A stretch of 64,000 bases of DNA from Candidatus Bathyarchaeota archaeon. Lineage in GTDB: Archaea; Thermoproteota; Bathyarchaeia; Bathyarchaeales; Bathycorpusculaceae. The stretch spans positions 480,001-544,000 of the forward strand of contig CAWEPZ010000011.1 of the NCBI GenBank assembly GCA_963811105.1, written 5' to 3'. Made by a program: the position numbers and the translations under genes. The notes below the pieces were generated by a model, which saw nothing but the letters and a program-made list of their open reading frames with translations, was not told the origin of the DNA and made no database searches. Each line of letters starts with the position of its first letter. Position 1 is the first letter of the stretch. Of the stretch, positions 11,137 to 52,967 are shown in pieces.

Positions 11137-12090
11137 TCACGTGAATTCATTACTATGTAATAACCTTTCTTTCAGCAAAATGCGCAAGCCAGCTTTCAAT
11201 GAAACCGTCGGTCTGTAACCTAAGAGTTTCTTAGCTTTTGAAATATCCGCATAACTATCTTTAATATCTCCCGCTCGAATATTCTCATGACGGATTTCCA
11301 AGTCCACGCCGGTTAATTCTAGAATTGTTTTAGCCAAGTCGTTAATGGAAGTGGGCTTACCAGAGCCAACGTTAAAAACTTCGCTCACGGCCTCCTTAGT
11401 TGTTATAGAAGCTAGAACAGCTTCAGCGATATCTTTCACATTTACAAAATCTCTGGTTTGCGAACCATCGCCATAAATTACAAGCGGTAACTGTTGTTTA
11501 GTAAATTCTATGAAACGCGTTATTACTCCACTATAATCATTCATGCCCTGCCTAGGCCCGTAAACATTAAAGAAACGCAGAACAACTGACTCCAAAAGTT
11601 TTCGCTCATTAAAGCCTAAACAATAACGCTCAACAATAAGTTTAGATTCAGCATATGGCGAAATCGGGCTGGTCGGAGCTTCTTCATTTACAGGTAGAAA
11701 TTCAGGGTCACCATTCACCGCGCAACTGGAAGCGAAAACAAATCTGTCAACTCGCTTCTCAATGCATGATCGAAGCAGATTCAAGGTTCCTAGAAGATTG
11801 ACGTCAAAAGTTAAATCAGGATTCTTGACCGACAAAGGCACACTTGTAACTGCTGCCAGATGAATTACTACATCAATGTCTTTAACGATTTTTTTGACGA
11901 GCGAAGCGTCACGAATGTCGCCTTTAACAAAATCCACTTTGCCTGAACTTACATGTCCTCGAATATTGTCTAGCTTGCCGGTGGATAAGTCATCAATGAT
12001 TCTTACAGCATAGCAGTCTTTAACTAATCGATCAACCACGTGGCTACCAATAAATCCAGCGCCGCCAGTTACCAAAACTCTTTTTGCCAT
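11137..12090 (-). CDS. UDP-glucose/UDP-GlcNAc 4-epimerase-like SDR
   Basis: VLVTGGAGFIG, PYAESK, RFFNVYGPRQ, GDGSQTRDF. Confidence 0.93.
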   Translation of the reverse strand: MAKRVLVTGGAGFIGSHVVDRLVKDCYAVRIIDDLSTGKLDNIRGHVSSGKVDFVKGDIRDASLVKKIVKDIDVVIHLAAVTSVPLSVKNPDLTFDVNLLGTLNLLRSCIEKRVDRFVFASSCAVNGDPEFLPVNEEAPTSPISPYAESKLIVERYCLGFNERKLLESVVLRFFNVYGPRQGMNDYSGVITRFIEFTKQQLPLVIYGDGSQTRDFVNVKDIAEAVLASITTKEAVSEVFNVGSGKPTSINDLAKTILELTGVDLEIRHENIRAGDIKDSYADISKAKKLLGYRPTVSLKAGLRILLKERLLHSNEFT

Positions 12091-37462: not shown

Positions 37463-37733
37463 AATCCAAATTGCAGTTTCTGCCTATGTGTTTTTTGGTC
37501 AAAGTGCAAAAAACAATGCCGGAATTCAAGTTAATCGAGCACGGTATCAAGTACAATGGCAGACTGGCAGGGATCTAATCTCGAGCCCGCTTTAGACTTC
37601 ACCCTCAAATCCCTTTTTGTCTTAGAATTATGTGAATACTTTCAAAGAGGTTAACAGGGAAAAAAACCTAAACTAATAATAGAATGACAATCTGAACAGC
37701 TGAATGTTTGAAATAAAAAAAAGGTTATGAAAT

Positions 37734-38030
37734 TCATCGATTGAGTTTTCTTAAGATCAGCAGTCCAATTATTGCGATTGCAATGATAATTGCTATTACT
37801 CCAGCGATTACAGTTGTCACTACGGTGTTGTTGACTGCATCTAAGTTTGCAGGTGCTGTTGTCGGTGAAGCTGAAGCGCTTCGACTACGCCTACTGCGGT
37901 TTCTGCCCATGAACTGCCATAAGATTCATCGCCAGCGAAGGCAGCGGTAACGACGTATTTCCCTGGTATGTCTGGCTTCCAAAGATAATTAAATGTTCCA
38001 CTCATGTCACTTGTAACAGTAGCAATATGT
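37734..38030 (-). pseudogene. C-terminal fragment of a membrane-anchored surface (PQQ-beta-propeller-type) protein
   Basis: IATVTSDMSGTFNYLWKPDIPGKYVVTAAFAGDESYGSSWAET, then a frameshift into an S/T/P linker and TM (VIAGVIAIIIAIAIIGLLILRK); no 5' part. Confidence 0.65.
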
Positions 38031-38365
38031 TTTGAGTTTTGAAAAATATTACGGCTTAACCGACACACCAAGTAGGCATTTCATGTATGGATAGTTATGA
38101 TGTTCTTATCCCTCTACCCATTCTGGTTCATTCTATGCTTCGAAACCGGAAAGAAATACAACTTTCCACCGAAGTTCTTCACACTCTTCATTATAGGAGT
38201 CTTGCTGTTGACAATACTTTCAATCATGCAATCGCAAATCCCAGTTTGAAGACGCCGACAATAGCCACATCTATCATGGCTCCGCCTAAAGTTTGGTCAA
38301 TTGAAAAAACTAAGTCGAATCCAGATAGGCTTAAGTCTCCATGTGATTTATCAGAATTTGATCCA

Positions 38366-39520
38366 TTATTTGAAACTCTGTTCAATTTCTCTTCTAGTCT
38401 TGGAGCCTAACTTAATTGGGGCATCCTGTAACCATGGGATATACTCCCATTTCCAAATCATGTTGTTTGCATCATGCTCAGCCATCGCGTGGTTCGATGT
38501 GTTTACAAACACAACAGGATGTTTGCTGTCTACAAAATAGTATTTGACAGGATGTTCGGGCGCCGGTGGAGGAGTTTTGTCTCCGTGAATTGAATCTGAA
38601 TTCATTGCCTCCTCATAACTGTATATCCCTTCGAAGGTAAACCAGTCACTTGCCGGATCCTTCCTGACAAGAATTTTAAATGACTCAAGATCCATCACCC
38701 TACCATAAATTAATCGTCGCAAGCCTGTGTAAATAGAATTCAAGATCCCGTGCTGACGAAGTCTTTCATTGTTAAAAAGAAGGGAGACCTCCATTTCATA
38801 AGATCCGTCTTGGTTGATAGGTCCTTTTGCACAGTGGACTTCGCGAATGAAGTTTTTTAAGGCGTCAACGCTCGGCTGATATATAACTGGTATCATCCTG
38901 TCGTCTTGCACATCCAATTGTACATCGAAAATATTATTTTGGCTCTTCGATGGATGGTCCAACTCATTTACTATCTCAAGGTACAAGCCGTAAATTATTG
39001 AATTTGTGATTTCGACTCCTTCTATTGCCCACTCCCAGATCCAATGTTTATCATCAAGCTGAAAGACCCATCGATTCTTTGGGCCTTCTTTTTTATTTGG
39101 AATATTATTTCTCGCAGTGTACATCTCGGTTTTGGGTTCTGAAGGTTTTCCCGAAATCTCAAAGCCCAGCATGTACCGAAGCATAACTTCTTTTTGCATG
39201 AAACTGCTAAGTATTGTTTGGGTGCTTCTGATAACAATCAAAGACTTATTGTCTAGAGTTCTTGCATAACTAACCGTGCAATTATCTGAGTCCCAAAACT
39301 CTTCCTTACCAGTCCAAGAAAACCTGCCAAAGTAATCAACCTGCCATTTCTTTTCTTTAACGGTGAACCAAACCGGCTTTGAAATCATTATTATCCTAAG
39401 TAATGTTAAAGCTTGAACTATTTGATGCTTCTTCTTCGAGCCTAATATTAGTTCCAAAAATTGAATTAAATGTCGATATGGTAGGGCTTTTGAGACGTGC
39501 CTCGTATAAACAAGGTGCAA
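38366..39520 (-). CDS. Hypothetical protein (likely start at MISKPVWF, about 39388)
   Basis: Long open frame; VFVNTSNHAM motif; no family recognised. Confidence 0.7.
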   Translation of the reverse strand: MHLVYTRHVSKALPYRHLIQFLELILGSKKKHQIVQALTLLRIIMISKPVWFTVKEKKWQVDYFGRFSWTGKEEFWDSDNCTVSYARTLDNKSLIVIRSTQTILSSFMQKEVMLRYMLGFEISGKPSEPKTEMYTARNNIPNKKEGPKNRWVFQLDDKHWIWEWAIEGVEITNSIIYGLYLEIVNELDHPSKSQNNIFDVQLDVQDDRMIPVIYQPSVDALKNFIREVHCAKGPINQDGSYEMEVSLLFNNERLRQHGILNSIYTGLRRLIYGRVMDLESFKILVRKDPASDWFTFEGIYSYEEAMNSDSIHGDKTPPPAPEHPVKYYFVDSKHPVVFVNTSNHAMAEHDANNMIWKWEYIPWLQDAPIKLGSKTRREIEQSFK

Positions 39521-40081
39521 TTTCTAAAACTAAATTGAGTTTTCACATATCTTGCAAGTAATTATTTTATTCACGATAAGTAGCCAATCGGATAAAGCAA
39601 AAGTAACATGTTGCATCCACTATCAAATCATTTCGAAATGTTTTTTCATCTTCAAATCCAATATTATGGCTGTCTTTTCGTGCCAACCTGAAGGATCAAC
39701 AAGAGCTTCAGTTTTGTGATTATTGCTTAATCTTTCTAGCCACCCATTTTGCAGGACTTTGTAAAAAGAAAAAGATAGCTCCGAACTCTCCATGTCAGGA
39801 TATCGAAGCTTTACAGAATTAATCATCCTGCATTGAGGTCTATTAAAAAAAGAAGCCATCTAACCAGCATTCCCGGTCAACCGCTGAGGCACCAAATATG
39901 TTTACTTGACTGACTGAGATTCTCCTCCAACCACACTTATCTGTTAGGAGAATTGCCATTTGCATCTTTAATGCCGTTTGCAGTCCAAATTCAGGCTGCT
40001 CTCTTTCGAGGTTAGGATGCACGGAGTAGAAAGTCTCATTTCAAGCTTAATTTTAAAAAATTAGGTGGAATTGTGTGCCTG

Positions 40082-40116
40082 GCGGGGATAGCTATGAGCC
40101 CTCGTTTGAACCCTCG
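40082..40116 (-). repeat. Degenerate tRNA-Arg 3'-arm copy with duplicated T-arm 12-mer (copy A)
   Basis: 40085-40116 matches 46225-46256 at 31/32 nt; TTTGAACCCTCG identical to the tRNA at 50167-50178. Confidence 0.7.
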
Positions 40117-40275
40117 CGTGGTTTATGCCAATAGCAAAGATGAAAAGCAGAACAAAGCTAATTATCCGAAGTAATTGAAGAGTCATAGTTTAGATATCAC
40201 TTGTAAACCCTTGCGCTTGGTATCAAGCTGCCTTAATTTTTATAGTTGAGAATTAACTTGTAATGGGGGAAGCAT

Positions 40276-41370
40276 TTGCCCAAGCAGACAGCTTTTGATT
40301 CGGATGAGGTTCTGGAAAAGGAGAAACAGGCTCATGAAGTAATAAAAGCGTGCCGAACAGATCGAGGTTTCAACGCTAGCACCCATCTTTATCATCAGCT
40401 TTGGCTAAGAGACCTTGTTTACTCGGAAGATGTCCTGCTACAACTTGGGTACCAAAAAGATGTTGAAAATCACTTGTCCGAATTTGTAACGCTGCAGCGC
40501 AGTAGCGGCCAGATCCCGACCGTTATTGATTACAGTGTAAGCAAAGTGATTCGTCAAAGATATCAGCGCTGCTCAGCTGATGCGGAAATTTTGTTTGTCA
40601 TTGGGATGCAAAAGCTCGTAGCTGTTGGGTGTGACGAGTTTCTTGATGAAAATTTGGAATCGGTGAAATTGTGCCTTCCCTTTATCGAGAATAAGCTGGA
40701 TCCGCATAGGCTTATTCCCGGCATGGATTGGAGGGATGCAATGCCAGTTTATGTAGGCAAGTACCTTTTAGCAAACCAGATGCTGTTGGCTGAAATGTAC
40801 GAATTGCAGGGAAACTTGTCGGCGTCAAATTTGGTTAAGGAAAACGTGAACAAGCTATTTTATTGTGGAGATTTAGGTTGGTATGCGGACAGCATTCATT
40901 GGAGGGGAAATGAGCTAAAACTAGATCGCCATTTTGACTGTCTTGGCAACGCTTTAGCAATCCTCAATGGAACAGCTTCGAAAAAAGTTTCACAAGACAT
41001 ACTTAGGGGGTTTAATGTTGCAAAAACGCCTTTCGGCTACAGAAACATCATGCCATACTACGTGTTCAACAGAGAGAAGGCACTGGCAACATGGTACAAG
41101 ACATGCCGAGTACCGTTTGCCGTATTCCTCAGAAACCGGATTGGCAAATACCAAAACTCAGCGATTTGGCCTTTTGTCGAGATAAGAGTGATTGATGCAC
41201 TAAAAAAATTGCAGACAGAAAATGAAGCTGAAGCAGCAGCTAACATAATGATTAAACGCAAAGAATTCAACGAGTTCTACGATCCAACAACTGGCACGCC
41301 TGAAGGAAGCGAAGGGCAGCTCTGGACAGCAGCCGCAACACTTTTGGTAATTAATTATTTCAGGTCTTGA
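40276..41370 (+). CDS. (alpha/alpha)6-barrel glycoside hydrolase (amylo-alpha-1,6-glucosidase/invertase-like)
   Basis: QLWLRD, DWRD, YQNSAIWPF, EFYDP..G...QLWTAA. Confidence 0.8.
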   Translation: MPKQTAFDSDEVLEKEKQAHEVIKACRTDRGFNASTHLYHQLWLRDLVYSEDVLLQLGYQKDVENHLSEFVTLQRSSGQIPTVIDYSVSKVIRQRYQRCSADAEILFVIGMQKLVAVGCDEFLDENLESVKLCLPFIENKLDPHRLIPGMDWRDAMPVYVGKYLLANQMLLAEMYELQGNLSASNLVKENVNKLFYCGDLGWYADSIHWRGNELKLDRHFDCLGNALAILNGTASKKVSQDILRGFNVAKTPFGYRNIMPYYVFNREKALATWYKTCRVPFAVFLRNRIGKYQNSAIWPFVEIRVIDALKKLQTENEAEAAANIMIKRKEFNEFYDPTTGTPEGSEGQLWTAAATLLVINYFRS

Positions 41371-41611
41371 AAACAATGGAACATTGATTCTATAACTTAT
41401 TTGTTATCGAAGTTTTACTCGTGTTATAACTTTGAGGTTTGCCATTTGAAAACTCAATCTGTAGCGGCTTTGATTCAGAAACTGAAAGTAAAGTAAAAAC
41501 TTCATTAATTCGTTAAAATATTAGTACATAAGCTATTTTCTATTTTTTTTCCTTCGTCGTTATTATAGCAATCGAGGTTTTCGGTTGAATAATTGACAAA
41601 TTATGTTTAAA

Positions 41612-41641
41612 GCGGGCGGGGAAAATTATGGACCCTCGGGT
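41612..41641 (-). repeat. Degenerate tRNA-Arg 3'-end copy (copy B)
   Basis: GCGGGCGGGGAaaattatggACCCTCG aligns without gaps, 21/27 nt, to 50152-50178. Confidence 0.5.
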
Positions 41642-41861
41642 ATGGGGTCGTACTGGACTCAACCCCCACGGTATGAATTCCTAACTCAAATCCTATTGAA
41701 TAATACTTATCTTGGTAGATTTTGGCCATGTTTGAAGGTGCCCGTCGCCATAGTACTCAAAAGTAAATATTATTTACCATAATCATGTGACTACACAAAC
41801 ATAGTAACATATTATTGTTTGTTTGAAACGCTTAACTTTTGATTTGCAAGAGGGCTATCAA

Positions 41862-43025
41862 ATGAAGGCTGAACCTTTTGAAATCAACATTTCGCAAGCA
41901 GTACTTGATGACCTTAGAGAACGCTTAACGCGTACACGATGGCCAGACGAGGTCACGAACGCAGGGTGGGATTATGGCACAAGTTTAAGTTATCTTAAAG
42001 AGTTCGTTAATTACTGGCAAAACGAATTTGACTGGCGCAAACAAGAGAAAGAGCTAAACAAATTTCCACAATTTAAGGCCGAAATTGATGACTTAAGCCT
42101 TCACTTTGTTCACGTTCGGGGTAGAGGACAAAATTCACTGCCTCTAATTCTTTTTCACGGTTGGCCTGATTCGTTCTATCGCTACTACAAAGTTATTCCG
42201 ATGTTGACTGACCCAGAAACGTTTGGAGGCGATTCAGCAGACTCTTTCGATGTTATTGTACCATCGCTTCCAGGGTTTGGATTCTCTGATCGCCCAAACA
42301 GTCGGGGCTACCGGCTTGCAGATTCAACCGAGAAATGGGCGAAGTTAATGAGTAAGGTGCTTGGTTACCAGAAATACGGAGTAGTCGGAGGAGACACTGG
42401 TAGTACGGTTGCTCAATTATTAACTCTGGCGCACCAGGAGGCAGTAGTTGGTGTTCATCTAACAGACTGGGGGCGCTGGCAAACCACAAACGAATCATAT
42501 CCAAATCTTACTCCGGCTGAGCAACAATACATTGGAGCATCACAGGGGTGGTTCTTTCAGGAAGGTGCATATGCACTCCTCCAATCCTCGAAACCCCAGA
42601 CGCTTGCCAATGCTTTAAACGACTCACCAGCTGGTTTGGCCTCCTGGATCTTAGAGAAGTTCTATAAATGGAGCGACTGCCAAGGAGATTTGAGTCGAAG
42701 CTATAACAAAGATGAACTAATCACAAACATAATGATCTACTGGGTCACCCAAACAATCAACTCATCATTTCGCCCTTACTACGAAGAAGCCCATAATCCT
42801 TCACTTGCCTTTGGAAAACGAATCGATCTGCCAGTAGGAATGTCGCTATTCCCCAAAGATCTTCCTCAGGGGCCTATGATGCCGCGCTCCTTGTCTGAGA
42901 GGGTCTTAAACATCCAACATTGGACGGAGATGCCGCGCGGCGGCCATTTTGCTGCTCTAGAAGAGCCAGATTTGTTCGTGAAAGATGTGCGAGATTTCTT
43001 CAGTAAAATTCTTTCGGAGTCATAA
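41862..43025 (+). CDS. Epoxide hydrolase (EHN domain plus alpha/beta hydrolase)
   Basis: DLRERLTRTRWP, HGWP, PSLPGFGFS, GGDTG, GGHFAALEEP. Confidence 0.93.
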   Translation: MKAEPFEINISQAVLDDLRERLTRTRWPDEVTNAGWDYGTSLSYLKEFVNYWQNEFDWRKQEKELNKFPQFKAEIDDLSLHFVHVRGRGQNSLPLILFHGWPDSFYRYYKVIPMLTDPETFGGDSADSFDVIVPSLPGFGFSDRPNSRGYRLADSTEKWAKLMSKVLGYQKYGVVGGDTGSTVAQLLTLAHQEAVVGVHLTDWGRWQTTNESYPNLTPAEQQYIGASQGWFFQEGAYALLQSSKPQTLANALNDSPAGLASWILEKFYKWSDCQGDLSRSYNKDELITNIMIYWVTQTINSSFRPYYEEAHNPSLAFGKRIDLPVGMSLFPKDLPQGPMMPRSLSERVLNIQHWTEMPRGGHFAALEEPDLFVKDVRDFFSKILSES

Positions 43026-43188
43026 ACTTCTTGCTAAAGCCATTTCTTAGATTGTTGGCAGGAGAAGAAACGATAGGTGAGCAAGTTTTAGTTTCAAACC
43101 CATCCTTCCAACAGACTGTGTGAAAACTATGTTAGGTTTTCGATAGAATGATAGTTTTATATGTATAATTGAGTGATATTAGCTATAT

Positions 43189-43374
43189 ATGCCTAAGAAA
43201 ATAGTTTTTGAGCCAGCAACAGAAATCAAAGTCACCGGAATAATAGGCTTCCTAAAAAGAAAAGTAACAGCCTACGGAACAGGCGCCAAAGTCACCTGCC
43301 CAAAAGAATACCTCGGCAAAACAGTCTACATAGTCATAGTAGATGAACCTGCCGAAGGAGACGAACAGCAATGA
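43189..43374 (+). CDS. DUF2080-family transposon-associated small protein
   Basis: KRKVTAYGTGAKVTCPKEYLGKTVYIVI; ATGA overlap with the transposase. Confidence 0.8.
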   Translation: MPKKIVFEPATEIKVTGIIGFLKRKVTAYGTGAKVTCPKEYLGKTVYIVIVDEPAEGDEQQ

Positions 43375-44834
43375 GCGAACACGTTGACGGAACACACCGA
43401 GACCAAACCATACTCTTCCCAGACACCCTCGACAAATACGTTGATGCAGAAAACCCAGTCAGGTTCATTGACGCCTTCATAGACAGCCTCAATCTAGAGA
43501 AGCTCGGCTTCAAACACTCAATTCTTGCTGACACAGGAAGACCATCTTACAATCCTTCAGACCTTCTAAAACTCTACACATATGGCTATCTGAACCAGAT
43601 CCGGTCCAGCAGAAAATTTGAAAGAGAATGCTACCGCAACGTCGAGGTAATGTGGTTAATGAAGAAGCTCGCTCCAGACCACAAAACCATTGCCGACTTC
43701 AGAAAAGACAACGTCGACTGTATAAAGCCTGTATTCAAAGAATTCGTCTACCTATGCCGATCACTCGACCTCTATGGTGCTCAGCTCATTGCCATAGATG
43801 GCAGCAAATTCAAGGCTGTAAACTCGAAGAGCAACAATTTCAACGAGAACACAGTTGCGTTGAGACTTAAACGGACCGAGGAGAAGATAGCAGAATACCT
43901 CAGGCTGATGGATGAGAATGACAAAGCCGACTCAGGCAAAAATGATAGCCTCAAAGTCAATGACCTTAAAGAAAGGATAGGCCGGCTTGAAGAGAAAAAG
44001 CAGCAGTACGAGCATGCTCAGAACCAGATGAAGGCGACAGGGCAGAAGGAGGTTTCGCTTGTGGATCCAGATAGCCGTTTGATGCGAGTCGACAGCCAAA
44101 GGCTGGATGTTTGCTATAATGTCCAAACGTCTGTGGATGCCAAGAAGCATCTCATTGTGGATTATGACGTGATAAACAATTCAACTGATCACCATCAATT
44201 AGTCAACGATGCTAAAGCAGCAAAGCAGACTCTTGGAGTTGAAAGATTGGAGGTAACGACCGACAAAGGGTTCTATGTTATGAAGGATTTGAAAGATTGT
44301 GAGGCTGAAGGCATAACTGTGTTTATGCCCATTCCTGCAGTTGTGAATCCGCATAAGCGTTTTGGGGTGCCGGAGCCTGGATTCTATACTGACAGGTTCG
44401 TGTATGACTCGGTTAGGGACGTTTATGTTTGTCCTGCTGGTGAGGATCTGGGGTTTTGGAAGTGCCTTCATAAGGGTAAACCGGAGCGAGGCAGAGTTTA
44501 CAAGACGCTTTGTTGCGAGGTGTGTGGTTTTAGGAGCAAGTGCACTAGGAATAAGCGTGGCAGGATTATTTTTAGGGGGGAATTCGAGGACGCTGTTGAA
44601 CGGCTCAGATCACGGTTGGGAACTTCTGAGGGAAAAGAGAAGTTGCACCGTAGAAGGGAGATAGTGGAGCATCCTTTTGGATCCATGAAGCGGGCTTTCA
44701 ATCAGGGTTATTTGCTCTTGAAGGGGCTTAGGAAGGTTAAAGGAGAGGTTGGGTTTACGATGTTGGCTTACAACATGCGAAGGGCTATCAACATTCTTGG
44801 GGTTGGCGTGTTAATGGCTTTAGTAAAAGCATGA
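43371..44834 (+). CDS. IS1182-family DDE transposase
   Basis: GRPSYNP, SSRKFE, PDHKTIADFR, AIDGSK, DPDSR, YNVQ, DKGF, VEHPFGSMK. Confidence 0.95.
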   Translation: MSEHVDGTHRDQTILFPDTLDKYVDAENPVRFIDAFIDSLNLEKLGFKHSILADTGRPSYNPSDLLKLYTYGYLNQIRSSRKFERECYRNVEVMWLMKKLAPDHKTIADFRKDNVDCIKPVFKEFVYLCRSLDLYGAQLIAIDGSKFKAVNSKSNNFNENTVALRLKRTEEKIAEYLRLMDENDKADSGKNDSLKVNDLKERIGRLEEKKQQYEHAQNQMKATGQKEVSLVDPDSRLMRVDSQRLDVCYNVQTSVDAKKHLIVDYDVINNSTDHHQLVNDAKAAKQTLGVERLEVTTDKGFYVMKDLKDCEAEGITVFMPIPAVVNPHKRFGVPEPGFYTDRFVYDSVRDVYVCPAGEDLGFWKCLHKGKPERGRVYKTLCCEVCGFRSKCTRNKRGRIIFRGEFEDAVERLRSRLGTSEGKEKLHRRREIVEHPFGSMKRAFNQGYLLLKGLRKVKGEVGFTMLAYNMRRAINILGVGVLMALVKA

Positions 44835-45133
44835 AAAAAGGCAAGACGAAAGCAACTATCAATTACAGACGAGTTTGAAGGTCAAGTATAATTCTTTCTA
44901 ATCCTAAGTTTTTACACAGTCTGCCAAGGGTGCAAATCCCAGCGGTCCGTTAAGTGAGAACTTGAAGATGAACCGCAAAGGACAGTGACGAAACACATAG
45001 AGGAATTAGCCTTCCTTGCCAAAATTATGATGGTGTCATAAGGAGCTTCGAAGGCTACACTATTGAATCAATCTTTGATTCAATTCAAGAAATAAATAAA
45101 GGAGCTTACTTGGTTACTAAGACCTTAGCCCTC

Positions 45134-45640
45134 TTATTCCCCGAGTACTGTGAATGCATAGTATAGATGAATAGCTAGAAGAATAAACAGGGTTGCTGCA
45201 AAGATTAAATGGATTTTAGAAGCCCATTTCCACTTCAAGGCTCGTCTCAACACAAGGGGATTAAGGCTTGCTGTAACCCAAGCTATTGCAGCAACAGAGA
45301 ATCCCAGAACTCCATGCATACTTCTAACAAAAGCAATGTTTCGAATTACTAAGCCGAAAATGAATTCTCCAGTCAGATACGCGGCCATTGTAACGACTAC
45401 CAACTTATGAATCGGCAAAGGCTTAACGCCAGCAATGCGCCCAAAGCGACCTGAAACCAAGAACCCTGCAGCTAGCGTTGCCATGACCAGAAGAAAACTT
45501 ATTCCGCCTAAAGAGCAATGAAATTCAAACCCTCCTTCTCCACCACCATTGTCCTCTGCCTGAGCCTGCACTCCAGTTATTGCTATCGAAACAAAGAGAA
45601 TTGACAATAAAATGACTAATATTAAGGGGGTTAGTTTCAA
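45134..45640 (-). CDS. Membrane protein with His residues in TM helices (cytochrome b561-like?)
   Basis: Signal peptide plus 4 TM, His in each (FHC, IHK, MHG, IHL). Confidence 0.6.
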   Translation of the reverse strand: MKLTPLILVILLSILFVSIAITGVQAQAEDNGGGEGGFEFHCSLGGISFLLVMATLAAGFLVSGRFGRIAGVKPLPIHKLVVVTMAAYLTGEFIFGLVIRNIAFVRSMHGVLGFSVAAIAWVTASLNPLVLRRALKWKWASKIHLIFAATLFILLAIHLYYAFTVLGE

Positions 45641-45798
45641 CTGGAGAACCTTCCAATGATTTTTTCTAAACCCACATCAAAGTACAGAACATATAAAAGT
45701 ATGTGACTGCAACCCGACAACAATAGCTTAGAAGCAAGCTGCAGGCAATTAGTTGCCAACTGCTAGCTCGTAAGGGTTCTTATGGCTTGGTGACAAAG

Positions 45799-45919
45799 CC
45801 AAGGCTTCGGCTTAGCTGTAATTAAGCGCATGACTGAATCGTTAGGCGGCACTGTCTCTTTTGAGAGCCAAGAGGGCAAAGGAACAACTTTTACAATACG
45901 TTTGCCGCCAAAGAGATAA
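45799..45919 (+). pseudogene. C-terminal HATPase fragment of a histidine kinase
   Basis: QGFGLAVIKRMTESLGGTVSFESQEGKGTTFTIRLPPKR*, paralogous to the ends of the kinases at 51398 and 61995. Confidence 0.8.
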
Positions 45920-46220
45920 ACCGTAAATGTGCATTCAAGTAGGAAAGCCTTCTGAATAAAATCATGTAACATCATGAAATCACTCTTTTCTTTTCATCGG
46001 AATTCTTGGAGGCTCGAACTTGCAATGACGAGGGCTCTATCGGACCCGGCCCTGAAAGAGTCTGAATCATAGTCTTTATGTCATTCATGATTAAACTTAG
46101 TTGCAATTATATTCAGCAGTTGATGAGTGAGAGGATTCAAACCAAACAATTTTCCTGAAATATCCTATTATTATGTCAGAAAACCAAAATTAGCCTTTTG
46201 TTGTGGTGGTATTGTTAAAA

Positions 46221-46259
46221 GCGCGGGATAGCTTTGAGCCCTCGTTTGAACCCTCGGGT
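46221..46259 (-). repeat. Degenerate tRNA-Arg 3'-arm copy (copy C)
   Basis: 31/32 identity with copy A; 46243-46259 is also present inverted at 50051-50067. Confidence 0.7.
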
Positions 46260-46582
46260 CGTAATGGCGTTGAAGACCGCACTCCCAACTTTTGGGTGAA
46301 GGGGGCGAAAACTGAAACAAATTGGAGATAACGCTCGCCCAAATATGTGGCGCAGTAGATATAGCTTTAACCTTAAAAAACTACCTCTTTGGTTAGTTAC
46401 CCTCTGCTCGCCGGATCTATGATTGACGATGTAGAAAAGAAAAAGAGCGTGCGGATTCCTTCTTGCAGGTTTAACTATTTTTCACTACTGAGCCGTGCTT
46501 GCACCCGCGCGCACACGCACCTTTAGGTTTTTTGAGCAGCTTTGCCATCTGCATGACTTGGGTAGACGAGAACGGTCCAGTA

Positions 46583-46711
46583 TTAATTTTTTCTCTTATT
46601 CCATCTGCGGTTACCAGGTGGTCCTATAAGAAAATAACCTATTAAAATAAGAGCAATGGTTACAACGATAATTATTACAATTGTTACTTCAGTCGTTACT
46701 CTCACCTCCAT
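46583..46711 (-). CDS. Putative 42-aa single-TM protein
   Basis: MEVRVTTEVTIVIIIVVTIALILIGYFLIGPPGNRRWNKRKN*. Confidence 0.4.
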   Translation of the reverse strand: MEVRVTTEVTIVIIIVVTIALILIGYFLIGPPGNRRWNKRKN

Positions 46712-46931
46712 TTTTAGTGTCTAAGTCTAAACACTTCCATTTAGCGCGAGCGTAATTTTTTTCGGTGTTTAGTGCTTCAACCTGGAACTTTTTTGGCAAT
46801 GACGAAAAGGATGATTCATTAACGACTTTTTTGCCATCCACTTCTATCTTGATGTATTTTAGAAACGCGCTCGCATTAACAATAATGGTGTGTTTTTCAT
46901 TTTCTCCTATTTCAAACTTAGCTTTTGTCAT
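46689..46931 (-). CDS. Small hypothetical protein, possibly truncated
   Basis: GAGGT SD and ATG; follows the ABC permease. Confidence 0.5.
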   Translation of the reverse strand: MTKAKFEIGENEKHTIIVNASAFLKYIKIEVDGKKVVNESSFSSLPKKFQVEALNTEKNYARAKWKCLDLDTKNGGESND

Positions 46932-46978
46932 TTACAAATACCTCTCATATGTGCTTTTCATTTCTTGGCGAAGAGCCT

Positions 46979-47722
46979 TTACTTCCATTTTGTCAATATT
47001 TCCTCCCTTTGGAAAGTCTTGGTGCTGACAAAGAAAAGCGCCACATCAACAGCTAAAATTATACCTGAAATTATGAGCAGGCTGTTTACGTCAAGGGTTA
47101 TTATGCTTGTCTCGCTGAGAAGGTATATGCCCAGAAGGGGGAAGAGGATAAAAACTCCAAAACTGTTAGCGCTGCGCACATCATTAACTCTCGATGAAAC
47201 AATAACGGCAAACAGAACACTCATAACAACGGCAGCCGGCATCAGAACTAACAGCAAAGTGGCGATGTTCCAGTTTGGAAAATAATAGGTGCCAAGCGTA
47301 TGGAAAGTAGCTTCATCAATGCCCACCATGAAAACTGCTGCCGCCGCATACATTGCGACTAAAGTTGGAATAATTGCGGAGATGGCTTTTCCAAGCAATA
47401 TTTCTCCATCAGTAAGGGGAGTGGCTAAAAGCGGTTCTAGGCTTTTCTCTACTTTCTCCCCCACTATACTGTAGGAGGCAATTCCCAAGGGAACGTAGGC
47501 TGCTCCTATGACTAAAAAGAAGGAAAAGGAGGTAAGCAAATTTGGAAGCACAGTCGGCGCTGCGAGTCCGTGGTTCCCCCTTATTGTTAAATATTCCAGT
47601 ATCACGGGAAACAGGACCGAGATAACAACCGGGAAAATAATGATAGAGGTCCAGACGTTTTTTACTCGCCTAAATATCTTGAAATCCCTAGCTGCAACAA
47701 TCCACGCCTTTGAGAGCCGCAT
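46979..47722 (-). CDS. ABC-2 type exporter permease
   Basis: SIVGEKVEKSLEPLLATP..EILLGK; 6 TM. Confidence 0.9.
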   Translation of the reverse strand: MRLSKAWIVAARDFKIFRRVKNVWTSIIIFPVVISVLFPVILEYLTIRGNHGLAAPTVLPNLLTSFSFFLVIGAAYVPLGIASYSIVGEKVEKSLEPLLATPLTDGEILLGKAISAIIPTLVAMYAAAAVFMVGIDEATFHTLGTYYFPNWNIATLLLVLMPAAVVMSVLFAVIVSSRVNDVRSANSFGVFILFPLLGIYLLSETSIITLDVNSLLIISGIILAVDVALFFVSTKTFQREEILTKWK

Positions 47723-47724
47723 AT

Positions 47725-48642
47725 TTATTTCCTCACAAGTTTTAGATAGGTTTCTTCCAAAGTTGAGCCTACCACATTGATTGATTTGACATGACCGCCC
47801 GCCAGCACTATAGCCTCTATAACAGGTGAATTTTCCTTGTCTGGGTTTTCCACGTCGAACGTTATTGTGTCGCCGCTGGTGGACAGGTTTTTGAGTGCCA
47901 GTTTTTTCAATGCCCCCAAAACTGCATCGTTCACTTGCTGCTCTAATCCAATAACTGTCTTTTTGCCGCTAACGGACCTTTCAAGTTCCTGCGGAGTCCC
48001 AATTGCCCTAAGACTCGTATGCATTATTGCTACCTTGTCGCAGATTCTCTGCGCCTCGTCGAGGTTGTGGGTGTTTAGAAAGATTGTTTTCTTCTCTTTT
48101 TTTAGTTGAAGAATGAACTCTCGGACTGTTTTTGAAGCCTCAGGATCTAGATTCGCGGTAGGTTCGTCCATGAAAATGACTTGCGGTTCATGAATTAGGG
48201 CGCGGGCTATGGCGAGTTTTTGTTTCATGCCCTTGGAAAAAGTTCCTGCCAAAACGTTTCTCTTATCCCAAAGCCCCAACATCTCAAGAAAACGCTGGAT
48301 GTTCTCTTTTCTTTGGGTTTCCGGACAATCGTATATCTTTGCAAAAAAGTCTAGGTTGTCGTAGGCTGTCAGATTTTCAGATAATCCAACGTTATCAGAG
48401 ACAAACCCGATGATTTTGCGGATTTTAATTGAGTCTTCCTTTTTTCCTATGTCATAGCCGCCTACGCTTGCGTTCCCACTAGTTTTGGATATTAGGCAAC
48501 AAAGCATTCTGACAGTCGTAGTTTTCCCTGCGCCGTTCGGACCAAGAAAACCGAAGACTTCGCCATCGTTAACATGAAGAGTGAGATTGTCTACGGCTGT
48601 TAGATCCCCAAACTTTTTTGTAAGGCCCTCAGTATCTATCAA
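47725..48642 (-). CDS. ABC exporter ATP-binding protein
   Basis: GPNGAGKT, FSKGMKQK, FMDEP, NTH. Confidence 0.95.
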   Translation of the reverse strand: MIDTEGLTKKFGDLTAVDNLTLHVNDGEVFGFLGPNGAGKTTTVRMLCCLISKTSGNASVGGYDIGKKEDSIKIRKIIGFVSDNVGLSENLTAYDNLDFFAKIYDCPETQRKENIQRFLEMLGLWDKRNVLAGTFSKGMKQKLAIARALIHEPQVIFMDEPTANLDPEASKTVREFILQLKKEKKTIFLNTHNLDEAQRICDKVAIMHTSLRAIGTPQELERSVSGKKTVIGLEQQVNDAVLGALKKLALKNLSTSGDTITFDVENPDKENSPVIEAIVLAGGHVKSINVVGSTLEETYLKLVRK

Positions 48643-48793
48643 TGCGATTACCCCTTGGACTAACGCAGCCCATTGTTTGTTAGTAAGAGGCTGGTGTTTT
48701 ATAAATAAGGTTCCACGGGTACAAAATTTGTACCGGGAAGATAAAAGTCAAAAGAGCCGTAGCACTCAGATATAGCAATTAAGGAGCTAAAGT

Positions 48794-49465
48794 ATGGTCG
48801 AGGACATTTCACCAGAGCATATTAAGCGGGTCGCAGAAAAAGCCCTAGTTATAGAACAGTACATAATAGAGAGAGCTTGGGGACTCTGTTATGCTGCAGT
48901 CGCCGCTGAAATTGTCCTTATAACTTTTCTGCCCTCGATTATCCTATTCCTTGGGGTTTCAGCTGGCTATTTTCTTGTTGTTGCGATCGTGGTTAACACA
49001 GCGGTGAGCATTGTGGGCGCTGCCATGATTGCCTGGATTTTCAAGAAGGCTTATAACTCCATGCTCGTACGCAGGGAAATTATGGATTCAATATGGACTA
49101 AATTGCTGAGGCCTTCGTGGATAGCGTTAGTTTGGACAGCCTACTATTTGCCGGTTCTTGCCGCAATTTTCTTGCTGCGCCACGAGTTTTTGGTTTTTAG
49201 ATTCGGACTTTTGGCCACAACAGTGATTCCGTTATTCTTTGCGTTTAAAGGTTCGTTCCCTGAGCGACTACCACGAGAAAGTATAGCTGTTGTGTCGGCA
49301 TTAACTATTTACACGTTAGGGGGTTTTGTTGTTTCTCTCATAAAAGCCAATGCGGGCTTTTACCTGATTCTTTGGGTAATCTTTCTTGTAATTCTTGTCT
49401 GGGCTTCTGCATATGCACGCAGACGGAAACCTCCCATCTCTTTGGAGGAACCCCAAAATTGGTAA
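48794..49465 (+). CDS. 6-TM membrane protein
   Basis: Hydrophobic ORF divergent from the ABC genes, overlapping the HTH gene start. Confidence 0.75.
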   Translation: MVEDISPEHIKRVAEKALVIEQYIIERAWGLCYAAVAAEIVLITFLPSIILFLGVSAGYFLVVAIVVNTAVSIVGAAMIAWIFKKAYNSMLVRREIMDSIWTKLLRPSWIALVWTAYYLPVLAAIFLLRHEFLVFRFGLLATTVIPLFFAFKGSFPERLPRESIAVVSALTIYTLGGFVVSLIKANAGFYLILWVIFLVILVWASAYARRRKPPISLEEPQNW

Positions 49466-49800
49466 CTGACGAACAACCCAACTTCAAAATCCCCATCACA
49501 GACACGATTAAATCATTAAACGAGCAGCTAAACGACCCTACCTTCAAATCATCAACCAGAATACTGATTTTGATCCTGCTTGCAATGAACAAGAAGTTGA
49601 CTTCTGTGGAGTTGCGTTCTTTCGTAGGGTTGGGAAAGGGTAGTTTGGAAAATCATTTGTCAAAGCTGGAGGCGGCTGGCTTAATCAGAGTTCGGTCGGT
49701 TAAGTCTTGGGGTGGCATGCACCAGGTTGTGGAGATAACTGAAAAGGGTCTGGAAGATTGCAGGTCGATACTTAAAAAAATTCACAGCTTGAATATATAG
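49459..49800 (+). CDS. Winged-helix transcriptional regulator (ArsR/MarR-like)
   Basis: STRILILILL, GLGKGSLENHLSKLEAAGLI, EITEKG; TTG at 49459. Confidence 0.85.
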   Translation: MVTDEQPNFKIPITDTIKSLNEQLNDPTFKSSTRILILILLAMNKKLTSVELRSFVGLGKGSLENHLSKLEAAGLIRVRSVKSWGGMHQVVEITEKGLEDCRSILKKIHSLNI

Positions 49801-50149
49801 AAATGGGATGTCAAAAAATAGTTTTAGTCCATATTCATTACCAATACGAGCAACAAGATTCCTGAGGCCAACATATAGGAATAAATTGAGAAAAATCCCA
49901 TGACTAAAAAGAAGACGCCAAAGAACAAAACGCTTCTAGCCTTGTTATCATACGTAAAATTTAGTCAGAAAAAGGGTGAGTGAAGAATCACCTTTGCGTA
50001 TTGATTCCCGTCCCAATAGCTTCACTTGCACTGGGTAATTTTGCGTGTTTACCCGAGGGTTCAAACGCTGAATTGAAAATGTAACCGATAACGAGAGTCA
50101 GAAAGCAGTAATTCTGATAGAAATAGCTTTATTTGCAGAAATAAGGCCG

Positions 50150-50281
50150 TGGCGGGCGGGGAGGGATTTGAACCCTCGACCCCCAACTTAGGAGGCTGGT
50201 GCTCTCTGCGGGGAAATATCAGAACAAAGCGGTAATCCCCTCTTTGCGAGAATTTTCCTATCCGTACTGAGCTACTCGCCC
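50150..50281 (-). tRNA. tRNA-Arg(CCT) with 54-nt non-canonical D-loop intron (50206-50259) and encoded CCA
   Basis: GGGCGAGTAGCTCAGTACGGAT^AGAGCACCAGC-CTCCTAA-GTTGGGGGTCGAGGGTTCAAATCCCTCCCCGCCCGCCA; relaxed bulge-helix-bulge at the junctions. Confidence 0.92.
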
Positions 50282-50294
50282 ACGACAAAGCTAA

Positions 50295-51190
50295 GTTTGG
50301 CTAGCTAAACAAATACCTATCGACCAACTTTTTAAAATTGAGAAGGTAGCCATTTTCTTCGAAGGAAAAGGAAAACAGCCTAGTACAATAGATTCATTCC
50401 TTAGGATTGCGGTTTTAGCTAGAAAAGCAAACTTGGACAATCCTCAAGAAGTAGAATTAGCAATCGCCAGACTAAGGAAGACTCACCTGAGTACCAAGAA
50501 ACTAGCCAACGTACCTGTTTCAAACACATACAAAGCAAAGTTGTGCTTCACATATCAACACTATACTAAATTCTATAAGATATTCTGGGAAGTGCCTCAG
50601 TATGTAGAGGAAGAGCGAAGCATCTAGCGACCGTCAGACGAAAAATGCCAGAACTAGTAGCATTTGCAAGAGGCGCCTTATCGCTGATGACTGACATTAG
50701 CGTTCGAACAGGATTAAGACCAATCGAAGTTCAAGGCTACGATGGATTAAGAGTGAAGGATATTCACTTTGACCAAAGTACAATTACAGCCTTAAGCATT
50801 AAAGGATGCAATGCCAGACGACAATGCAAATAACTGAAGAGTTAACAGCTAAACTTAGAACGTACATAACCATTCGCAATCTTCGAGAAAATGATTACCT
50901 GTTCAAAGGAGACGCTCGAAGATATGGGGAGCACTTCCGAAGAGCGAAACTAATTAGCCAAAAAACTCCAAGACCCAACGATTAAAAACATACTGCTTTA
51001 CGATTTGAGGCATCACTATATCGCACAACAATTAAGAAAAATACAAAATGTCGAATTTGTACGCCAAATAATAGGGCACAAACGTTTGGATACCGCACAA
51101 AAATAATTTCACCTTCTTGCAAATACAAACGGAGAACGGATAGTGGAAGGCACAACGGACAAAGAACGAGCAAGCACTGAACAAACGAGG
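50295..51190 (+). pseudogene. Decayed tyrosine recombinase/integrase
   Basis: RTGLRPIE, LYDLRHHY, VRQIIGHKRLDTAQK*FHL (TAA at the expected catalytic Tyr); several stops and frameshifts. Confidence 0.88.
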
Positions 51191-51397
51191 AAATGAGAGT
51201 TTTATATCAGTTTGAATAGCTCCGCTACTATATGGTAGCTTACAGCAAAACAAGTTAATAATTTTCACGAACGTTTAATAATTATAAACCTTGATACTTA
51301 AGTTGGGATTCTCACGAAAGAAGATATCAGGCTTACTAAGAAAACCTTTGAAAACAATAGTAAAGATGTTAACGATAAAGCCGAAAGATTTCCCGAC

Positions 51398-52384
51398 TTG
51401 TATGAAGATTTTGATGAAGCGTTCATTGCGACTGATTGGGATTTGACTATTATACACTGGAACAAGGCTGCCGAAAGGATTACAACCGTTAAAGCCAAAG
51501 ATGCTCTAGGAAAGAAGATTTACGATGTCCTACCTGAAATGACTACAGTTGACGTTACACCTTACTTAACTTTGCTTCAACAAAGAAAGCACGCACGTTT
51601 TATGATGAACACAATTAGCAGAGAAACTCAAAAACCATCGATATTTGAGATTTCAATGTATCCTTCTGAACAAGGAATCATAGTAGTCGTTGAAGACAAG
51701 ACTGAGGAAGAAAAAACAAAGAGGCTATCCGCTATTGGTGCAACTGCTGGCATGGTTGGTCATGACATCCGCAATCCACTACAAGCAATTATTGGAGATA
51801 TTTTCTTGCTTAAGCAAAATCTCTTATCAATTCCAGAATCAGAAACAAGAAAAGAAGTTGCTGAGAGTTTAGACAACATAGAGACAAATGTTAATTATAT
51901 TAACAAGATTGTGGCTGACTTGCAAGACTATTCTCGTTCAATAAATCCAGAGTATTCAGAATTTAACTTAAAGGATCCGATTAATAGCATTTTACAATCG
52001 GTTAATCGCCAAAATAATCTAGATATTTCATTGAATATCGAGCCCTCGTTTAATATCACTTCAGACCGCTCAATAATTAGGCGCATCTTGACCAATCTAA
52101 TTGTTAATGCGATTCAAGCCATGCCAAATGGAGGCAAACTGATACTAAACAGCAACAGAAAGGACAATAATATACTGATTACGGTAGAAGATACTGGCAT
52201 TGGGATTCCTGAGGATATTAAGCCTAAGCTGTTCTCACCTATGGTAACAACCAAGGCGAAAGGTCAAGGACTAGGTTTAGCGGTTGTTAAGCGCCTTGTT
52301 GAAGCATTGAATGGAACTATTACTTTTGAAAGCCAAGAAGGAAAGGGAACAAAATTCATTATTGCGTTGCCGACTAGTAATTAA
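51398..52384 (+). CDS. PAS-domain sensor histidine kinase
   Basis: WNKAAE (PAS), VGHDIRNPL (H-box), NLIVNAIQAM, DTGIGI, GQGLGL. Confidence 0.93.
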   Translation: MYEDFDEAFIATDWDLTIIHWNKAAERITTVKAKDALGKKIYDVLPEMTTVDVTPYLTLLQQRKHARFMMNTISRETQKPSIFEISMYPSEQGIIVVVEDKTEEEKTKRLSAIGATAGMVGHDIRNPLQAIIGDIFLLKQNLLSIPESETRKEVAESLDNIETNVNYINKIVADLQDYSRSINPEYSEFNLKDPINSILQSVNRQNNLDISLNIEPSFNITSDRSIIRRILTNLIVNAIQAMPNGGKLILNSNRKDNNILITVEDTGIGIPEDIKPKLFSPMVTTKAKGQGLGLAVVKRLVEALNGTITFESQEGKGTKFIIALPTSN

Positions 52385-52495
52385 CCGCTTTCTCAAGAAA
52401 TAAAAGACCTAAAATATCATAACTAGACAGCGACAATAGAAATATAGTGATTAAGAATGCGTGGAACACACAAGAGTAAAAAATTACAAAGCCTA

Positions 52496-52527
52496 AGGCT
52501 GGGCTCTATCCTATTGAGCTACTCGCC
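52496..52527 (-). repeat. Intron-less copy of the tRNA-Arg 5' half (att-like)
   Basis: GGCGAGTAGCTCAATA-GGATAGAGC-CCAGCCT versus spliced tRNA GGCGAGTAGCTCAGTACGGATAGAGCACCAGCCT. Confidence 0.8.
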
Positions 52528-52967
52528 TAATCCTTTTTTTAAAATTGTGCTTGGATTTGTCTCTCCTTTGTCAACATTAACTTTTTGACCAATGTGACCC
52601 ACTCTTATCTGAATTGATGGGATGCTCTTCCTTGGGCATTTAATCAAGTTTTTTCTGAATATGACAGAAGGACTGCTGATGATTCTCAAACCCTGACTCA
52701 CCATTCAACCTGCCTTAGTATTGTCTAGCTCTATCATAATTTATTGTTCCACTCTTATTATAGAAAAACTAGATAGAAGATAACTTCATATTTCACATTC
52801 AAACCTTACAAATGTAATCTTCATATTTGCTCCCAAGTTCGAGCTGAGTGGTAGATGAGCTATTTAATGACCATTAAAACAAATCTTGGGAGAGCTGAAG
52901 GAAAGAAAGAATTTTGATTTTTAACCAAGAATAAGAATGATGCGTTAAGAGACAGCTATAATGCTAC

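Follow-up and report, generated by a model that had tools for sequence, protein, structure and literature searches.

Integrons hold arrays of short cassettes, each with a recombination module bounded by inverted repeats, and the content and order of these arrays are variable. The streptococcal cis-mobilisable elements (CIMEs) are flanked by attachment (att) sites, carry no recombination or transfer genes, and are thought to move by accretion and co-excision with a related autonomous element. In archaea, sections of two papers (PMC6563490, PMC8371274) describe the tandem re-use of a tRNA site by integrase-bearing elements in Thaumarchaeota, Sulfolobales and Thermococcales. The present study concerns a 64-kb window of DNA (the whole stretch analysed, to which coordinates refer unless a contig is named) from a Candidatus Bathyarchaeota genome, in which a reading made from the letters alone, called here the sequence-only reading, had noticed copies of the 3' end of a tRNA-Arg gene between unrelated genes. 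Our analysis indicates that positions 40076-50281 are probably a flexible island on tRNA-Arg(CCT), formed by the serial site-specific integration of integrase-less cargo elements into the tRNA 3' end. Since the serial re-use of one tRNA site is known, the earlier suggestion of an undescribed system was overstated.

Composite sites and their tRNA-Arg(CCT) anchor

Three copies of the tRNA 3' end, all on the minus strand and co-oriented with tRNA-Arg(CCT), were confirmed by sequence and by blastn-short, together with the inverted 17-mer that the sequence-only reading had reported beside them. Composite site A (46221..46256; CGAGGGTTCAAA-CGAGGGCTCAAAGCTAT-CCCGCGC) forms the right end of cassette 1, site B (41610..41638; CGAGGGTCCATAATTTTCCCCGCCCGC) forms the right end of cassette 2, and composite site C (40076..40116; CGAGGGTTCAAA-CGAGGGCTCATAGCTAT-CCCCGCC...) is the outermost in the array. 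A and C agree at 31 of 32 nt (blastn-short, E 1.8e-9), and the 3.49-Mb genome has no other pair like them. The apparent tandem duplication in them proved to be a conserved composite site, CGAGGGTTCAAA-CGAGGGCTCAWMGCTAT-CCCCGCCCGCCA, with the consensus ACC-CGAGGGTTCAAACGAGGGCTCA-WMGCTAT-CCCCGCCCGCCA; it consists of two tandem 12-nt T-arm-like units (the unit being CGAGGGYTCAAA) and has a tRNA-like ending that includes CCA. The composites of the genus are alike throughout, with many exact 22/22 matches, and because all of them are equally similar, the likeness of A and C reflects the conservation of a site family and no private event between the two. The observed closeness of A and C therefore stands, while the special relationship once read into it does not. 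Site B belongs to the same family without the 12-nt first unit; it matches the tRNA 3' end at 21 of 27 positions and is better matched by composites with their flanks (51/74 in G091 and 62/98 in G012, where G-numbers label genomes, L-numbers label loci, and our own genome is G000).

The recurrence of this site was evaluated in 120 genomes of the genus, and the 22-nt composite core (at most 3 mismatches) was found in 31 of them, against 3 hits for the reversed control, with exact core matches in 15 genomes including our own. In a sample of the order, the composite was present in 9 of 56 members of the genus, in 1 of 91 family members from other genera and in none of 153 genomes from 11 other families. 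In 12 of 16 fetched composite loci, a tRNA-Arg 3' end lies upstream in the same orientation, 0.7-14 kb away. The composites form arrays of one to three (three in G012, two in the fetched locus of G075), and G019 has three on one contig, downstream of its tRNA. The search with the copies, as the sequence-only reading had recommended, thus located the composite nearly always co-oriented downstream of tRNA-Arg(CCT); the scattering of the motif over the genome, which that reading had named as the outcome that would speak against it, was not seen, since the A/C pair is unique and the copies lie in tRNA-linked arrays. These data support the derivation of the sites from the tRNA 3' arm.

The second conserved component is an inverted T-arm motif (50054..50068, minus strand; GCGTTTGAACCCTCG), which marks the left boundary of cassette 1 and corresponds to the 17-mer at 50051-50067 that matches A exactly (E 0.003-0.007 genome-wide). 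A scan with GTTTGAACCCTCG, allowing at most 2 mismatches, of 46 sites (22 canonical tRNA 3' ends and 24 composites) detected the inverted motif after 12, namely 9 of the canonical ends and 3 of the composites, at a distance of 69-96 nt, which was 81-83 nt in 10 of the 12. Neither control gave a hit (upstream, 0/46; reversed motif, 0/46), and the genome-wide frequency of the motif would predict about 0.13. An exact search for the pattern 'core-N76-90-motif' gave 12 places, spread over 10 of the 120 genomes, and none for its control. Where the inverted motif is lacking, the site is in most cases the terminal composite of its array or a tRNA without a cassette. In our array, a degenerate inverted motif (46130..46144, minus strand; TGGTTTGAATCCTCT), with 4 mismatches to the 15-mer, lies about 76 nt after A and forms the left boundary of cassette 2; the spacer between them resembles the type that we call S2. 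The tRNA 3' end and the inverted motif are separated by a spacer of about 82 nt (50069..50149, minus strand), called S1, which is 88-90% identical to the tRNA trailers of G010, G049, G078 and G118 and near-identical in G092, and it stands ahead of four different cargos.

Site A is preceded by a flank of about 140 nt (F1; 46257..46400, minus strand), which from its sequence looks like a degenerate full copy of tRNA-Arg. Behind a promoter-like, AT-rich stretch, it retains islands of the whole tRNA (GGGCGAG, AAGTTGGGAGT, the T-arm and the core). F1 is about 80-88% identical beside composites with different cargo in G074, G127, G105 and G107 and beside composites #2 and #3 of G012. No conserved open reading frame (ORF) was found in the six frames of F1 and the composite; with stops in all six and no conserved peptide, F1 was rejected as an integrase N-fragment or other ORF. 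A functional multi-intron tRNA was judged by eye to be unlikely, as the D-stem and T-stem do not close and the putative acceptor changes are uncompensated. The AT-rich box lies about 25-45 nt before GGGCGAG, and the same flank is present at L039, L062, L063, L064 and L072. The typical order of a unit is therefore a site core, a spacer of about 82 nt, the inverted unit, the cargo, the flank, the two tandem units and again the core. When folded as single strands, five modules paired via their terminal repeats only (about 10-16 bp), leaving an unstructured interior of about 100 nt.

The anchor of the island, on the attB side, is tRNA-Arg(CCT) (50150..50281, minus strand), whose exon 1 (50281-50258), intron (50257-50204) and exon 2 (50203-50150) read GGGCGAGTAGCTCAGTACGGATAG / a 54-nt intron at 50257..50204 / AGCACCAGCCTCCTAAGTTGGGGGTCGAGGGTTCAAATCCCTCCCCGCCCGCCA, with CCA encoded. 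The target gene is intact, and the inserted DNA begins after CCA, at its 3' side. ARAGORN and Rfam (gathering threshold) reported 0 tRNA genes in the window because the 54-nt intron lies in the D-arm and is non-canonical; the intron option of ARAGORN gave a wrong call (tRNA-Gly) on our sequence, and tRNA-Arg(cct) was called only after an interval in the intron region had been removed in silico. Both exons were matched in 40 of 41 relatives searched, mostly at 96-100% identity, and they are contiguous, without an intron, in G001, G005, G012, G019 and G022. Of 7 orthologous loci scanned with ARAGORN, 2 gave a tRNA-Arg(cct) call, those of the intron-less G001 and G005. One environmental DNA contig lacks exactly 50204-50257, and this joint (50203>50258), an intron-less allele of the tRNA, is the sole clean joint among the environmental contigs. 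The intron-less relatives, the calls in relatives and the intron-skipping contig together confirm that the tRNA gene is real. The D-arm intron is present, absent or different between species of the genus. An A6.C67 mismatch in the acceptor stem is common to most relatives, with G6 in G092 and G093. Therefore, tRNA genes with non-canonical introns, which escape the usual tRNA finders, can conceal the anchors of islands.

Two further arrangements of the site were observed elsewhere. A second composite variant, CGAGGGTTCAAACGCGGGTTCG..., lies outside the window at G000:C11:1303996-1304017, with a broken integrase (C11:1302080-1302494) about 1.5 kb away, and continues as ...AACCTATACGGACCCGC... 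in G046 and G079; its own conserved flank is common to G046. This variant may be a sister family for another target, in which case the first 12-nt unit would be element-specific. The locus L053 (G004:C16:~11769-11860) is a chimera, in which a nearly intact tRNA-Arg 5' half, as far as the anticodon loop, is followed by TTCATACC and a composite; the junction sequence also precedes two composites in G019. Possibly, a tRNA gene was inactivated here via recombination at a different point.

Cassettes, their transfer and their cargo

The comparison of arrays between species revealed that whole cassettes are shared. The cassette with the ABC exporter in our array (50077-46515) matches the cassette at array position 3 in G012 with 97.5% identity over 3572 nt, the identity beginning at the inverted motif, and it matches G092 with 98.1% identity over 3701 nt, a block that takes in the spacer and tRNA exon 2 as well. 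As a background, syntenic core genes are 64-73% identical to those of G012 and about 69% identical to those of G092. This cassette is the first in our array, the first in that of G092, which consists of one cassette, and the third in G012. A second cassette, encoding a TetR regulator and a 390-aa protein, shows 91-95% identity among G100, G075 and G023, against 78-79% for the flanking core genes (G100 vs G075), and its homology starts at the inverted motif or 30 nt past it and stops at the composite end. As the same packets are near-identical in distantly related species, these data point to a working gene-exchange route and not to chance repeats, and the sequence identities show that cassettes have recently been transferred between species. 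Beyond the arrays lie the same host genes (a DEAD-box helicase and a MIP channel in G092 and G019, a DEAD-box helicase in G095), and judging from this gene context the arrays occupy one chromosomal slot.

The cassettes are 1-4 genes long, with genes on both strands and with winged helix-turn-helix (wHTH) or TetR regulators of their own. In relatives, the cargo comprises other ABC exporters, the TetR and 390-aa proteins, PAS/MASE3 histidine kinases, nitroreductases, DUF169 proteins, MscL, PIN proteins and others. Integrases are absent from these arrays: integrase families were matched by none of the 119 ORFs that surround composites in 16 loci and by none of 20 further ORFs (0/139), there was no PF00589 match on the array contigs of G019, G012 and G075 or in our own array (40076-50150), and the nearest PF00589 match on the array contigs of G107 and G112 is weak and at least 108 kb from the array. 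No fragment of an integrase gene (int) follows the tRNA in our own array or in the cassette arrays of the relatives' loci.

The cargo in the window is unrelated from cassette to cassette, as had been noticed from the sequence, and Pfam identified its components. Cassette 1 (46401..50053, both strands) carries a wHTH regulator (49372-49800, plus), a membrane protein (48794-49465, plus), an ABC ATPase (47725-48642, minus) and an ABC-2 permease (46979-47722, minus), the last two making up the exporter. Cassette 2 (41639..46129, both strands) carries a membrane protein (45134-45640, minus) and an epoxide hydrolase (41823-43025, plus), which among the 120 genus genomes is present in our own only. 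It is interrupted by an insertion sequence (IS; 43112-44923) of the DUF772/DDE_Tnp_1_6 type, with imperfect terminal inverted repeats of about 20 bp and a DDE transposase at 43371-44834 on the plus strand; since three 100%-identical copies exist in the genome (two on C11 and one on C9), this IS was recently active. Cassette 3 (40117..41609, plus strand) carries a GH100-like glycoside hydrolase (GH; 40276-41370).

The GH is patchily distributed, occurring in 22 of the 120 genomes, and its nucleotide identity is 91.6% to G020 and 85% to G001. It lies directly beside tRNA-Arg in G020, G001, G096, G009 and G113, and it is convergent to the canonical tRNA-Arg 3' end in 5 of 9 loci with close homologues. 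The GH is thus a frequent first resident of the slot, which has been pushed inward in our genome. With the ABC cassette standing first or third by genome and the GH beside the tRNA in five relatives, the sites mark breakpoints of synteny, a check that the sequence-only reading had set. Homology to G020 stops at 40153, and in G109 a composite lies about 210 nt before its GH; the spacers between GH and site are unalignable between our genome, G020 and G001, and also between G020 and G001. Just past C, a 384-aa ORF (38366-39520, minus) without a Pfam match was noted, and the stretch 37500-40153 is not syntenic with G020. The genome as a whole has 41% G+C, and the presence of eIF-1A and a RadA paralogue indicates an archaeal host; a family search for archaeal AmoA gave no match in this genome, and the controls were likewise without a match.

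Integration model and alternative explanations

Based on this evidence, we propose that each arrival displaces the older elements outward and would leave a tRNA-derived attR-type site (A, B or C) at the distal end. The portable recombination region would comprise the composite, a core TCCCCGCCCGC(CA) common to the tRNA, the spacer of about 82 nt and one inverted T-arm-like unit. The crossover presumably takes place within the core, to the left of CCA, and the composite would be the arm carried by the element. In G075 and G049, the terminal composites are followed directly, as ...CCCGC|ATTTTGCT, by a trailer that also follows the tRNA of G019 and the attR of G016; the native trailer after terminal composites is as a core crossover predicts, and along with the site order it upholds the serial integration that the sequence-only reading had considered. 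The repeated units could function as binding sites for the recombinase or for an accessory protein. A tyrosine recombinase from autonomous elements at the same tRNA, of the Sulfolobus spindle-shaped virus (SSV) type as in G016, would insert and remove the cassettes, either by acting in trans or through accretion with such an element and subsequent co-excision. Subsequent exchanges between cassette variants, and close to or at the inverted motif, would then re-assort spacers, cargo and right ends.

The element in G016 (L027, C6:582001-587500) is a candidate source of a trans-acting integrase. About 5.4 kb long and apparently intact, it occupies the 3' end of tRNA-Arg and has an SSV-type split integrase: the 295-aa C-part of int comes right after the tRNA, and an ORF runs through the canonical 31-nt repeat at the distal end. 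It also encodes a 444-aa protein of unknown family.

Several observations weigh against this reading. The inverted motif (at most 2 mismatches) does not follow the tRNA in the composite-ended arrays of G019, G075, G091 and G112, and it is therefore not obligatory. The ABC cargo is combined with the S1 spacer in our genome and G092 and with S2 in G012, and the identity breaks off at the inverted motif; such unlinked spacers and cargo, with a breakpoint at that position, are unexpected under a simple crossover confined to the core. The ABC cassette is also a mosaic, 98% identical to G092 and G012 up to 46515 and then following the variant of G127, at up to 95-97% locally, while the G092 copy ends in a degenerate canonical remnant. 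It follows from this mosaic that homologous recombination operates too, and it could account for some of what is seen; the unlinked spacers and the mosaic cassette together suggest that the inverted unit is a second crossover point, or that variants recombine frequently. Most genomes with the GH beside the tRNA have no composite beyond it, so that we infer, rather than observe, that C is the end of the GH cassette. The cores of A and B are damaged, and our own array is therefore probably inactive now, at least in part. Finally, no enzyme was identified and no excision or circle junction was seen in the public reads, which are uninformative in this respect as short contigs: no run contained more than 24% of the sampled words, and none of the short assembled contigs joins two sites. 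The loose ends at 40079/40114 and 46246/46304 in environmental contigs lead only to modules with other flanks in environmental relatives.

An extended form of this proposal, which we put forward tentatively, is a cassette-exchange system, in which a portable module of about 150-270 bp derived from tRNA-Arg (a degenerate pseudo-tRNA, both tandem T-arm units, the acceptor core, the fixed 82-nt spacer and one inverted unit) would act in this genus as a stand-alone recombination site, and a recombinase supplied in trans would capture integrase-less packets at tRNA-Arg(CCT), stack and re-order them and pass them between species, with crossovers at both the core and the inverted unit. If this is true, the module would be a functional analogue of integron cassettes with an independent origin from a tRNA gene. 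For archaea of this kind, the exchange of accessory genes is little understood, and here one slot holds packets that are 91-98% identical against about 65-79% for core genes and that bear exporters, regulators, hydrolases, sensor kinases and nitroreductases. A conserved site without an enzyme points to mobilisation in trans or by accretion. The site architecture offers a search key for cassettes in metagenomes and a defined substrate for archaeal integrases.

A different explanation is a fossil island: the segments would be the decayed stumps of once-complete integrase-bearing elements without current site-specific mobility, and species would have become alike here by taking up DNA and recombining it homologously, the tRNA and the modules providing the homology arms. 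The absence of any integrase from the arrays, the damaged cores of A and B, the IS insertion, and the mosaic identity within the ABC cassette are all compatible with such an island, and the exchange of modules between tandem archaeal elements by homologous recombination is discussed in a section of PMC8371274. However, random decay would not keep the 12-nt duplication and the spacing of 81-83 nt across species with unrelated cargo, and no Int(N) or Int(C) stumps lie beside the cassettes. At the right breakpoint of the 98% block (46515), there is no homology past it in G092 and G012, and cargo that is unique to 1 of 120 genomes needs an entry route independent of homology on both flanks. We regard the fossil island as unlikely.

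The integron-like explanation, one of two that the sequence-only reading had offered, assumes a dedicated resident recombinase, for which the integrase beside the tRNA was considered, attC-like modules, an attI-like tRNA 3' end and crossovers also at the inverted motif. The integrase remnant across the tRNA is real: a tyrosine-recombinase pseudogene (50310..51112, plus strand) with frameshifts and stops (5 TAA) has a weak PF00589 match, and by eye the codon expected for its catalytic tyrosine reads TAA. Its family has full-length members with an open frame, for example of 362 aa in G097 and 372 aa in G068. This family abuts the 5' end of tRNA-Arg(CCT), or a copy of the 5' fragment, and reads away from it in 10 of the 10 best loci, and 5'-fragment repeats flank its integrases in our genome, G105 and G069. 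In the window, a displaced degenerate tRNA 5' part with native upstream flank (52496..52552, minus strand) lies at the far end; it is 84% identical to the tRNA 5' exon and upstream flank of G001 and G019 and has a 13-nt exact match to the tRNA 5' end. The 5'-end habit of the family and the displaced 5' fragment indicate that 50282-52495 is a separate insertion into the tRNA 5' half and holds no enzyme of the array; a PAS histidine kinase (51398..52384, plus; Pfam) is probably cargo of this 5'-side element. Integration into the 5' part of a tRNA gene is reported as rare in a section of PMC6563490.

The cassettes do resemble those of integrons in being short (1-4 genes), integrase-less and ended by a conserved module with inverted repeats of 12-16 bp, and one cassette can stand at differing positions in different arrays. 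Breakpoints fall at the inverted motif in our genome compared with G012, in G100 compared with G023 and in G100 compared with G075, and the integrase remnant is divergent from the array beside the tRNA in our genome, G075 and G012. Against this, the neighbouring integrase family belongs to a separate element tied to the tRNA 5' end, and genomes with strong homologues of it (E<1e-12) number 7 of the 31 that bear composites vs 10 of the 89 others, which is no clear association; at E<=1e-5 the counts were 13/31 vs 35/89, and an association was likewise not visible. Moreover, no integrase was found in or near the arrays examined, the cassettes bring regulators of their own and use both strands for their genes, the modules fold via their terminal repeats without attC-like bulged hairpins, and terminal composites lack the spacer and the inverted motif. 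The proposal of the neighbouring integrase as the enzyme was thus abandoned, and an integron-like platform in the strict sense seems to us quite improbable.

Chance resemblance, or generic T-arm-like motifs without biological linkage, has a negligible probability, since although 12-13-nt T-arm words match many tRNA genes genome-wide, the 32-nt match of A and C is unique in 3.49 Mb, the core count in the genus far exceeds that of its control (31/120 genomes vs 3 hits), and the geometry is fixed, with both controls at 0/46. Casposon-like and short interspersed nuclear element (SINE)-like readings were also rejected, as the repeats lack symmetry about the core and copies occur only in tRNA-linked arrays, without dispersal.

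Comparison with known systems

Serial integration at the tRNA 3' end, as favoured here, shares with integrons the arrays of short cassettes with a module of their own, whose content and order vary between relatives. Unlike integrons, these arrays have no linked intI-type gene, the cassettes carry their own regulators in mixed orientation, and the anchor is a functional tRNA gene; there is no adjacent acting integrase, no attC bulged hairpin and no series of promoter-less single ORFs in one orientation. The module, about 130-145 nt long, derives from a tRNA and, unlike attC, pairs at its ends only. The likeness to CIMEs is closer, as the cassettes are att-flanked and integrase-less and may be mobilised by a partner, whereas CIMEs are bacterial and have plain att repeats. 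By this analogy, we favour accretion of the CIME type as the nearest mechanistic model, which for archaea was not found documented, nor was mobilisation in trans, in the sections covered of PMC6563490 and PMC8371274.

The tycheposons of Prochlorococcus, as parts of the bioRxiv preprint describe them (10.1101/2020.12.28.424599), likewise place cargo at particular tRNA genes, push older cargo inward and leave partial tRNA copies between, and their islands hold niche-adaptive cargo and accumulate degenerate remnants. According to the same parts, they are bacterial and have their own tyrosine (or serine) recombinase and often replication genes, whereas the cassettes here are archaeal and recombinase-less, with a composite and inverted site.

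The tRNA-targeted islands and tandem arrays of tyrosine-recombinase elements in archaea are likewise close in layout. As described in sections of PMC6563490 and PMC8371274, they use the 3' part of tRNA genes, including intron-bearing ones, as the target, regenerate the tRNA, displace a 3' fragment to the far end and give rise to arrays through repeated use of the site. Our locus likewise has an intact target, co-oriented 3' copies at the distal ends and differently occupied relatives, and it has no integrase inside the element. The SSV-type arrangement, with att inside int and Int(N) and Int(C) flanking the element, is seen in the G016 element and not in the cassettes, which lack both an integrase and int stumps. 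The thaumarchaeal att sites are short direct repeats with a median of 17 bp, as sections of these papers (PMC6563490, PMC8371274) report, and the term 'arm-type' does not appear in the main text of the review of archaeal integrated elements. A composite site with an inverted motif, or integrase-less cassette arrays at archaeal tRNA genes, were not found described in literature searches or in the sections covered of PMC8371274, 10.1101/2020.12.28.424599 and PMC6563490, whose supplementary att-site tables could bear on this. In contrast to the plain tRNA fragments of the archaeal elements, the distal site here is a derived composite with an inverted copy about 82 nt away. The serial re-use of a tRNA site is known, and what appears to be new in this locus is that cassettes of a genus-wide family consistently lack integrases and share a conserved composite and an inverted motif at a fixed distance.

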